From Escherichia coli (GTDB lineage Bacteria; Pseudomonadota; Gammaproteobacteria; Enterobacterales; Enterobacteriaceae): a stretch of DNA of 64,000 nucleotides. The position numbers were made by a program. Shown here piece by piece: positions 1 through 3,000 of this stretch. The stretch lies in assembly GCF_003018255.1 (NCBI RefSeq), contig NZ_CP027440.1, one strand, 5' to 3'. The number at the start of each line of letters is the position of its first letter. The stretch's first letter is position 1.

Positions 1-3000
1 ATATTTCGTGTTTATTATGTTATAATGATATTTGAATGTATAATTATACTCCTGCATCATTTTACACTCGCCAGAATTTAATTTTTTTTGTATTTCTAGG
101 CTCATTAAGTTTTTAATCTCTTCACCATCAAAAAATGGCGACATATCTTCATTAATCCCATAAATATTATAATAATGATTAAGTGTATTTCCTTCTACGG
201 TTGCAGCAATCCATGTAGTATAATCATCTACTTTAATAGGGAATTTTTTCTTGGATAGTTCATTTTTTAAGCATGAGGCAATTTTATCTGCATCTTCTTT
301 GTTTGATAAAATATCATCAATTTTATTATCACCGAACTCAGTTGCAATTATCTTTACAAAGATCAGCAGAATAATAAACATTAATGCTGCTCCTGTTTTT
401 TTTATTGCTCCTAATATTTTGTTTCCTGTCATCTTGCAAATCTAACATAAAATTTAATGAGTCTTATTAATAAATTTAATTTCTTATGAGTTGTCAACCT
501 TCCATCAAGCAAACCGTGATCTAACAGCATGACTGTCTGCTTGATATGTGTTGTCGTCAACACAGTACAGTCCTTGAATACATATAACAAATTTGTTATG
601 TTGATACCTATGAACTACACTATCGAATACTACAGTGAAGAGGTCCGGCTGGAAGTCGATCAGCTTCCATTGAGTATGCGTGTCCGATACAAACATCTCA
701 TTGAACGTATGAAGGTATACGGCAGCAATCTCGGAGAACCTCATACCAGCGCCTTTGGTGATGGGCTTTTCGAACTCAGAATTAAAGGCAACGATGGGAT
801 TGCACGTGTTTTTTACTGCACTCTGACAGGGAAACGCATCATTATGCTGCATAGTTTCATTAAGAAAACGCAGAAAACACCGCCAGCCGAACGCAAAAAA
901 GCTGAAGCCAGAATGAAGGAGGTTAAGCATGACTGGTAAACGCATTACACCTACCATGACACACGACGAAATGGCAGCCAAATGGATGGAGGATCCGGCT
1001 TTCAAAGCAGAATACGACGCCATCGCCGACGAATTCGCACTACTTGATGAAATGCTGGCAGCACGAAAAGAAGCAGGCTTAACCCAGGCTGAAGTTGCTG
1101 AACGTATGGGAACAAAAGCGACTGCGATCACCAGAATGGAAAGCAATCTTGCATCAGGTATAAGCGGCCCATCATTTGCCACACTGAAAAAATTCGCCCG
1201 TGCTACAGGGAAAAAACTCCAGATCCGCTTCGTTTAACTCTCCACTACCGCGCCGTCATTCTGGCGGCGCTTTACCCCAGAGAAATATCAATCACCGGAT
1301 TGCCACATCCCACTCCGGCTCCTGCCATCTCAAATCCGGTGAATCATTTCTCACCGGAATAACCATTACGTCCTTTTCCCTCCGCTCCCTTTCTATCGCC
1401 ATCACAGCCAATGCTGCAACCATGATGTATTTTTGTTCGTCGGTTCCTGTTTCATAACGACGCATGAGGGTAAACTCGGGGCGATCAGTAACCTCAATGA
1501 TTTCGTTAATTTCTTTAATTTCGAGAGGAATATCCATGAGTTTAGTCTCCTTTGACATTACATGCCCACACTGTTTAAAAGAGCGAGCTGTTATTGAGGC
1601 ATTTGCCGAAAAACAAATTGAAAAAACACCTCTTTTTAACGTCGCTTTTGTATGCAGAAGTTGTCATCGAGGAGGTGTTGCTATTGTTGAAATCCCATCA
1701 GACCACTATCACGGCCCCATGGCGGAAAGCCAGAAAAAAGACCTCGATATTCTGATTTCAGGAAATAGCCAGTACCGTTTCCGCAAGATCTATCCTGCGG
1801 TCAAAAAAATTACCGCACCAGAATATACGCCCCCGGTTGCAGACCGTACTTTTGTTGAGGCAAAAGAGGATTTACAGAGGAGGCGGTACGACACAGTGGT
1901 AATTCTTTGTCGCAGAGTCCTCGATATCTCCACGAAAAAACTGCTCGGCGATGAAGCAGGAAAAGAATCGCTGTCGCAACGTATTCAGATGATTTACAAA
2001 AAAGGGCTGATCACTGAACAGATGAAGGAATGGGCTCATATTGTACGAATTGATGCCAATAAAGCAGTTCATACAGATGAAGTTTTCACACCAATTGAGG
2101 CAAGCCAGATCCTGAGTTTTACCGAAATGTTTTTAGTCTACGCCTTCACTCTGCCTGCAATGGTGGCAGCCAGACGTGAACAAAAAAGATCAGATTCAGC
2201 CTCTATATGAATCACTTTTCTGAACACGTAAGCCCCCGTCATTCACGACGGGGAGAACATCAATCCCTCTGCACTCCCCCGCCAGAATGCCAGCACACGC
2301 TGCATCGTTTCGCTGTTACGGCACTCGCGACAAATTATGTTGTAGCGTCTGTCGTAGCGCCGGATTTCCCCATCAGGTAATGCCCGGATAAGACCAGGGT
2401 CAATAACAACCGGTTTCTTTGCCTTTGCTCTCGAGAGTTTTTTGCGGGCATTTTGCCAGTCCTTACGCGCCTGATCAGACGGGAATAAACCATAACCTGA
2501 GTCGAATATAGCGCCACTGACAACCAGTTCTCTGGACAAACGTCTGACAGCTGTCTTGCTGACTCCGGTTTCAGTAGCCAGTTGCCTGAACGTTCCCCGA
2601 CCATTCAGGCGCACGAGCTCCACAATACGTGCCTTCAGTTCTTCCCGCTGTTCGGGTGTAAATACTTTTGCCATAAGCTCTCCAGTTATCACTTTTCCGA
2701 TGCAATACTGCTGGATGAATCGGTAATCTGCATGACAAGTTCCCGGTGTTTATTCAGCTCACGTAGTGCAGCACAGACACGCTCCCACTTCTGGACCTGT
2801 TTTTTGGCGCGACGAAGTTCACGACTGGCGGCCCGTAGAGGTGGAAGGGTCACTGCACCAGCATATTTTTCGGTGAACGACGGAACATCCCGGATAAACT
2901 CATCTGTACAGGCCTTTGCCGTGCCCTCTGACATCAACGGAAAACGATTCAGTTCGTCGCCTGACGCGCTGTTTTCTGCTTCGTGTGTGATATTCTCATC

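Follow-up and report, generated by a model that had tools for sequence, protein, structure and literature searches.

Near the start of the 64,000-nucleotide (nt) stretch of Escherichia coli contig NZ_CP027440.1 that was analyzed (the window) lie two divergent genes whose start codons overlap. One encodes a 224-amino-acid (aa) protein that is very probably a defense RNase of the type of RAZR, the ring-activated zinc-finger RNase formerly called PD-T7-4, and the other encodes an 81-aa three-helix protein, here called the partner. The two-gene module occupies the “ren/nin” position of a lambdoid Shiga toxin (Stx)-type prophage, and conservation of the pair exceeds chance, which makes a functional link between RNase and partner probable. 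The best overall explanation, to which we give a probability of about 0.45, is a RAZR-like defense RNase whose expression is set by gene geometry to be opposite in lysogenic and lytic states, possibly with an inhibitory partner.

RAZR was found by Vassallo et al. (2022) and characterized by Zhang et al. (Nature 2026, PMC13017515; PDB 9y9c). It consists of a Cys4 zinc ribbon and a DUF4145 “divergent HEPN” domain with catalytic residues R146 and H154, and alanine substitutions of R146/H154 lead to loss of defense (PMC13017515). A 24-mer ring of RAZR forms around phage portal or recombinase rings, upon which single-stranded RNA is cleaved nonspecifically and the infection is aborted; specificity is set by the zinc ribbon, and RAZR functions as a single gene (PMC13017515).

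An initial annotation of the window had described the 224-aa protein as a zinc ribbon joined to a DUF4145-like C terminus, with a possible connection to abortive infection. The domain assignment was borne out by profile search and structure prediction. Pfam DUF4145 matches residues 118 to 197 (E=8.1e-9), and the residues invariant in an alignment of 31 homologues (35 to 98% identity) include the four cysteines of the ribbon (C10, C13, C40, and C43), R126, W166, R171, D173, N175, and H179. The AlphaFold model (predicted local distance difference test [pLDDT] score, 89.6) has a beta-ribbon at residues 4 to 52, a small insert, and a helical domain with a HEPN fold from residue 100, and its sole low-confidence part is the loop at 173 to 177, between R171 and H179. 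The HEPN fold, the DUF4145 match, and the conserved R...H motif place the protein in the DUF4145/HEPN superfamily (Pfam CL0291), as classified in PMC3710099. A profile of the family gave weak PDB matches to the zinc ribbons of RPB9 and L44e, with which the ribbon of RAZR was likewise compared by its authors (PMC13017515).

The connection to abortive infection also gained strength, as the architecture is common with that of RAZR, a characterized abortive-infection RNase, and the catalytic Arg and His align. The 219-aa RAZR sequence was rebuilt from two database fragments, and the residue numbers of PMC13017515 match it exactly. BLASTP aligned 109 residues with this sequence at 27% identity (E=1e-5) and placed R171/H179 opposite R146/H154, and profile-profile comparison (hhalign) with the RAZR family gave 82% probability (E=1.1e-5) over the HEPN part only. 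As 9y9c itself was absent from the matches of a Foldseek search of the PDB, the relationship to RAZR rests on sequence, profile, and residue alignments. Judged from these alignments, the 224-aa protein is a distant RAZR relative of the same architecture and not a close family member.

The small open reading frame (ORF) opposite the RNase gene encodes a three-helix protein of 60 to 90 aa in a conserved, co-inherited family, which the initial annotation had missed. The window copy matches PHROG 8371 (2.9e-55). Pairwise differences among 34 unique small-ORF sequences numbered 10,820, 8,767, and 16,543 at codon positions 1, 2, and 3, and the partner frame is the only one free of stops across all 34; the small ORF is therefore a real gene. 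Synonymous codons vary freely at Leu, Arg, Ser, Ala, and Gly, and the initiator Met is conserved. A check for constraint on synonymous sites of the small ORF by an embedded −10 element gave no signal, since Phe23 is TTT in 25/25 sequences but Phe40 is also TTT in 20/22 and the genes are AT biased. Exhaustive profile search of 1.84 billion proteins yielded 36 clusters at 50% identity, nearly all with lengths of 55 to 97 aa. Word-based search found the partner in E. coli only; the DNA upstream of the Yersinia RNase homologue then showed the same ORF in the same place. Identity between partners tracks identity between the corresponding RNases pairwise (r=0.75). The AlphaFold2 (AF2) model of the partner is a three-helix bundle with a variable tail (pLDDT of >90 for residues 11 to 50), and searches of Pfam, NCBIfam, and PADLOC gave no match.

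The mirrored start codons described in the initial annotation are confirmed as a CATG in which the plus-strand ATG takes up 1536 to 1538 and the minus-strand ATG takes up 1537 to 1535, and this arrangement is kept in very divergent pairs of the family. A mechanical ORF listing allows longer versions of both genes, from 1464 on the plus strand and from 1558 on the minus strand (88 aa). PHROG 8371 (81 positions) aligns to residues 8 to 88 of the 88-aa version, PHROG 1305 aligns to the whole 224-aa protein, and RefSeq annotates both genes with a 2-nt overlap; the starts are fixed at 1536 and 1537 because the family profiles and the RefSeq annotation support them. In the window, each start has a strong Shine-Dalgarno sequence, as the initial annotation had claimed, and each such sequence lies within codons of the opposing gene. 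A Shine-Dalgarno-like core precedes the DUF4145 gene in 37/37 unique paired relatives.

A homologous small ORF whose ATG forms a CATG with that of the RNase gene was found at 64 of 94 DUF4145-family loci, and none of the 94 has one at any other place within ~3 kb of the RNase gene. Reciprocally, 53 of 61 viral small-ORF loci adjoin an RNase gene, all but one of these (52/53) through CATG. Four distant partner genes (P0113, P0117, P0127, and P0124, the last in a Paraburkholderia prophage) are joined head to head by CATG to a full-length zinc-ribbon-DUF4145 ORF, and CATG is kept in the distant pairs L095 to L101 and L166; in several distant pairs, gene callers had truncated the RNase N terminus. 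The geometry of the pair spans Enterobacterales, metagenomic relatives, and Paraburkholderia. Divergent overlaps account for only 2 of 4,131 adjacent gene pairs in an E. coli reference genome (PMC4161906).

The RNase gene is antisense to both flanking genes at 26 of 32 unique paired loci and at 20 of 24 unpaired loci, and the partner is co-directional with the surrounding phage early operon at all loci, a point that the initial annotation had also missed. In Yersinia, there is a 4-nt overlap between the partner and the next co-directional nin gene, as a position within the operon would lead one to expect. Because of the gene orientation, early-operon transcripts must cross the RNase gene antisense before they reach the partner start, and any RNase mRNA that has a leader would be complementary to 5′ partner transcript sequence. 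Any transcript from which the partner is translated would have to start within or beyond the RNase gene, so that it would be antisense to that gene and span its ribosome-binding site, and the converse would hold for the RNase. The mutually exclusive or antisense-coupled expression put forward in the initial annotation is a reasonable inference from geometry and orientation, and the odds that antisense exclusivity operates appear about even. The minus strand at 1941 to 1959, inside the RNase coding region (LLGDEA codons), has a terminator-like hairpin with TTTTTT after it; unless antiterminated, early-operon transcripts could end there and not reach the partner gene.

By analogy with RAZR, the RNase would be produced but idle in the lysogen, with the zinc ribbon as a sensor that would bind a multimeric protein of a superinfecting phage, leading to nonspecific RNA cleavage and abortive infection. 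Upon induction, antiterminated early-right transcription (from PR, the rightward early promoter) would run antisense through the RNase gene and would shut it off by transcriptional interference and RNA pairing, while the same read-through transcript would supply partner mRNA. The partner protein would then modulate the RNase, within this scheme probably as an inhibitor, which would keep the ring-shaped proteins of the prophage itself from triggering the RNase in its own lytic cycle. Taken by itself, inhibition of the RNase by the partner is a tentative and somewhat doubtful proposal. We regard as rather unlikely the more specific reading that the CATG pair is a dedicated toggle, with the RNase on in the lysogen, antisense silencing and direct neutralization by the small protein upon induction, and orphan copies in related Stx phages serving as counter-defense against resident prophages with the RNase.

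Several results weigh against the best overall explanation. The PADLOC PD-T7-4 model matches at only E=1.3e-3 (16 bits, HEPN part only), and the family profile matches RAZR structure 9y9c at E=0.1. Similarity is marginal outside the HEPN core, and the trigger and oligomeric mechanism may differ from those of RAZR. The claim of a strong Shine-Dalgarno sequence at each start does not extend across the family for the small ORF, as one is found in only 17/37 unique relatives and is weak or absent in 20/37. A scan of 400 to 2800 for consensus promoters and terminators gave no sigma-70 match upstream of either start and one before higB only, and a relaxed promoter scan of the 37 unique relatives found no promoter at a conserved position. 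Fold searches with the partner returned a generic helical bundle without an informative match, the isoelectric points and net charges of its family are near neutral and uninformative, and nothing in its fold or charge indicates RNase binding. Furthermore, 30 of the 94 family loci, complete chromosomes included, have no partner, and a recombinant RNase allele (P0002; see below) is 70% identical to that in the window next to a near-identical partner, which counters tight pairwise specificity.

The partnerless loci comprise a clade with proteins starting MAM..., Enterobacter prophages (with the gene flanked by xis and a traR-like gene), and a single frameshifted remnant, and the catalytic residues are kept in all partnerless RNases. 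As intact RNase genes occur without it, the partner is no obligatory antitoxin. At two partnerless Enterobacter-type loci (L007 and L053), the sequence that stands in place of the small ORF contains a palindrome (TTGATTATTCGAAATCAA and TTGATTAATCGAAATCAA) ~150 nt ahead of the DUF4145 start codon, and this may be an operator for another regulator. Conversely, orphan partners without the RNase are found in phage phiSTEC1589-Stx1c and in seven or eight IMG/VR contigs (in which the stretch homologous to the window ends at 1532, 3 nt before CATG), as well as in one metagenomic phage contig. Orphan partners in related phages that lack the RNase would fit a role in immunity or counter-defense.

In orphan variant L003, CATG is a recombination breakpoint. 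At L003 4304 to 5106, ~300 nt of unrelated sequence and a 166-aa minus-strand gene stand in place of the RNase gene, with a possible 96-aa plus-strand ORF (4437 to 4727) overlapping the replacement region, and this replacement may be another cassette that can fill the slot. In the E. coli allele P0002 (L005 5001 to 5675 and L006), RNase codons 1 to 185 are replaced by a divergent version with a different zinc ribbon, the left breakpoint lies exactly at CATG, and the partner and the last 39 RNase codons are 98 to 99% identical to those in the window. The L003 and P0002 breakpoints show that recombination has repeatedly joined sequences at CATG and that the same partner can occur with different zinc ribbons. 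Positive selection on P0002 was rejected: a ratio of nonsynonymous to synonymous substitution rates (dN/dS) of 0.27 at a dS of ~1 indicates a recombinant allele and not rapid adaptive change.

The pairing might instead be a frozen accident, in which a single-gene defense moron came to lie beside an unrelated early phage gene, the coupling is only unavoidable transcriptional interference, and CATG persists only because insertions or deletions would damage both N termini and the RNase Shine-Dalgarno sequence. The single-gene function of RAZR, the partnerless loci and orphan small ORFs, the association of the same partner with the divergent P0002 RNase, and the absence of a recognizable functional fold in the partner all agree with such an origin. 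We nevertheless consider it unlikely, as linkage and exact geometry persist down to ~30 to 36% protein identity, in Gamma- and Betaproteobacteria and in freely shuffled phage genomes, most small-ORF loci adjoin the RNase gene, and the 36-cluster small family lies beside the RNase family at nearly every locus examined. Codon statistics led to rejection of the far more remote reading of the small ORF as a noncoding conserved promoter or leader of the RNase gene. The RNase promoter must lie in this region at loci without a co-directional upstream gene, and a −10-like TAAAYT is kept in many relatives, but conserved E-F-T codons fully account for TAAAYT, and the excess of third-position differences, free synonymous variation, single open frame in 34 sequences, and conserved initiator Met are those of a coding sequence.

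A toxin-antitoxin system, in which the HEPN protein is constitutively dangerous and the small protein is a labile antitoxin whose decay leads to prophage stabilization or abortive infection, would have precedent, as toxic HEPN RNases with small or enzymatic antitoxins are numerous (PMC3710099), HEPN toxin structures are among the fold matches, and other toxin-antitoxin pairs adjoin the module (higBA here and hicAB in L095). This is improbable on the gene arrangement, which is divergent and not co-transcribed, so that the antitoxin would be antisense to its toxin, and on the persistence of intact, catalytically complete RNase genes without a partner in complete genomes, whereas a generic type II toxin cannot be maintained without its antitoxin. 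In addition, the partner is not an MNT nucleotidyltransferase, and for RAZR itself the figure legends name toxicity assays of RAZR alone and the abstract says that host cells have no activating ring structure (PMC13017515). A similarly low probability is given to the small protein as a divergent regulator of the RNase gene, a repressor or activator bound to DNA around the overlapping starts. Regulator-target pairs typically have this layout, a small three-helix protein can be DNA binding, and the different upstream region with a palindrome (TTGATT...AATCAA) at L007 and L053 suggests that another factor took over at those unpaired loci. Set against this, no helix-turn-helix or other DNA-binding family or fold was detected in the partner, its core is near neutral to slightly acidic, the overlap leaves no room for an operator between the genes, and conserved repeats were not noticed.

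The RNase-partner module and the neighboring prophage genes are listed in the table.

Coordinates of the module and of neighboring prophage genes in the window
Feature	Position	Strand	Description
RAZR-like RNase gene (224 aa)	1536..2210 (stop included)	+	Cys4 zinc ribbon, ~35-residue insert, linker, C-terminal DUF4145/HEPN
Zinc-ribbon knuckles	1563..1664	+	C10-P-H-C13 at 1563-1574; C40-R-S-C43 at 1653-1664
Predicted catalytic motif R171-x7-H179 (VRIDANKAVH)	2046..2072	+	R171 at 2046-2048, H179 at 2070-2072
Partner gene (81-aa three-helix protein)	1292..1537 (stop included)	-	Core DRPEFTLMxRYE...ALxxxxIExxR
CATG junction	1535-1538	.	Read from sequence; two start codons overlap by 2 nt (A1536, T1537)
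RNase-gene Shine-Dalgarno GAGGA	1525-1529	+	6 nt ahead of ATG; within partner codons 3-5
Partner-gene Shine-Dalgarno AAGGAG	1547-1552	-	9 nt ahead of its ATG; within RNase codons 4-6
HigB/RelE-like toxin and HigA-like antitoxin pair	610-1237	+	Second reverse-oriented insert, adjoining the module
DUF977/Ren-like	2243-2692	-	
DUF1627	2689-3459	-	
DnaC/P-like	3485-4225	-	
O-like	4232-5314	-	
cII	5568-5864	-	
cro-like	6008-6247	-	
cI-like repressor	6320-7090	+	

The first 15.6 kb of the window is the left arm of a lambdoid prophage and is 99.6% identical to Shigella phage 75/02 Stx, with 99.6 to 99.8% identity for the region. The early-right operon of the prophage runs along the minus strand, and the genes are arranged as cI/cro/cII/O/P/DUF1627/DUF977, RNase, partner, higBA, and ninB...Q; the ninB...Q genes, also on the minus strand, lie beyond the HigB/HigA-like pair (order taken from relatives). 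The neighboring DUF977 gene is labeled a “Ren-like exclusion protein” by PHROG. The allele group of the RNase is present in 35 of 5,426 complete E. coli genomes, many of them human isolates, and strain names of the carriers suggest Shiga toxin-producing E. coli.

A hairpin at 1250 to 1270, followed by TTT, lies between the higBA pair and the stop codon of the partner. In orphan phage L003, the higBA slot is filled by another two-gene plus-strand module (3347 to 3995), and homology to the window begins at this hairpin. In the distant metagenomic relative L095/L096, a HicA/HicB-like pair (1593 to 2056) follows the RNase gene on the same strand. Reverse-oriented slots seem to collect toxin-antitoxin or defense genes, as with hicAB in L095/L096 and higBA in E. 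coli. An in-frame TAG interrupts the DnaC/P-like helicase-loader gene after codon 174, and an intact 246-aa homologue is found in phage 75/02 Stx and E. coli ES5; the prophage may be replication defective, or the TAG may be a sequencing error. Positions 4573 to 4658, inside the O-like gene, and 5345 to 5497, in the cII-O spacer, share direct repeats of 41 to 49 nt (92 to 100% identity), the spacer also has a 16-nt tandem repeat at 5401 to 5432, and the O protein has a QEQEQEQE run. These repeats may be origin or iteron-like elements or the result of partial duplication. An Rfam scan of positions 1 to 8000 (E≤1) gave two subthreshold chance matches only.

The module bears on how prophage-encoded abortive-infection genes are disarmed at self-induction. 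As phage portal or recombinase rings trigger RNases of the RAZR type, a carrier prophage must escape its own rings when lytic, and the module is a concrete, easily cloned candidate solution to this problem. If the toggle reading is true, the small protein would be without precedent as a natural inhibitor or self-immunity factor of RAZR-type systems. The analysis also defines a clade of RAZR-like proteins that is common in Enterobacterales prophages and weakly matched by the PADLOC PD-T7-4 model. Very few bacterial gene pairs have a conserved divergent overlap, and the layout is thus of interest for gene regulation generally.

Among known systems, DS-38 is a validated E. coli defense protein with HEPN and zinc finger domains that is distinct from PD-T7-4 (DefensePredictor, Science 2026, PMC13092281). 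Identity with the 224-aa RNase was considered and rejected, as DS-38 is WP_001313577.1, with 366 aa, and the accessions of the RNase and partner genes do not appear among the rows listed in the DefensePredictor tables (PMC13092281). HEPN-MNT (HEPT-MNT) toxin-antitoxin systems, e.g., SO_3166/SO_3165 and the Aphanizomenon HEPN/MNT pair, have an adjacent, co-transcribed nucleotidyltransferase as the partner, whereas here the genes diverge and form no operon, the partner is something other than a nucleotidyltransferase, and the RNase has a zinc-ribbon sensor and is stable without the partner.

The 224-aa protein resembles RAZR in its length of ~220 aa, in the succession of an N-terminal Cys4 ribbon with a CPHC first knuckle, a linker, and a DUF4145 divergent HEPN domain, in its R-x7-H catalytic pair (R171/H179 here and R146/H154 in RAZR), and in its location on mobile elements of Enterobacteria. 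The RAZR ribbon is laid out as CPHC...CSHC, and the 224-aa protein has the same layout. Unlike RAZR, it is only ~27% identical over the HEPN core, its zinc-ribbon sequence is not alignable, and an additional ~35 residues separate its ribbon from its linker. Its gene lies antisense inside a lambdoid early operon, whereas that of RAZR lies beside an integrase gene and is co-directional with it. It also has a conserved head-to-head partner gene and so departs from the single-gene organization of RAZR, whose canonical loci have no partner. The head-to-head partner and the start-codon overlap set the module apart from RAZR and are undescribed as far as the searched literature shows.

In lambda, rexAB and ren are prophage exclusion genes in lambdoid variable slots. 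The RNase gene likewise fills, as an accessory gene, the slot that follows the replication genes, and the prophage presumably expresses it to keep out other phages, but it belongs to an unrelated protein family, is in reversed orientation, and has an overlapping partner. The face-to-face promoter switches of temperate phages 186 (pR/pL) and P2 (Pe/Pc) work by transcriptional interference; both promoters are held in an intergenic region of tens of base pairs, and the genes are the switch regulators. The module is similar to these switches in its divergent genes, in transcripts that overlap at their 5′ ends, and in the opposition of lytic and lysogenic expression. It differs from them in its intergenic distance of −2 nt, in the placement of both ribosome-binding sites within codons of the other gene, and in having a defense effector as one of the two genes.

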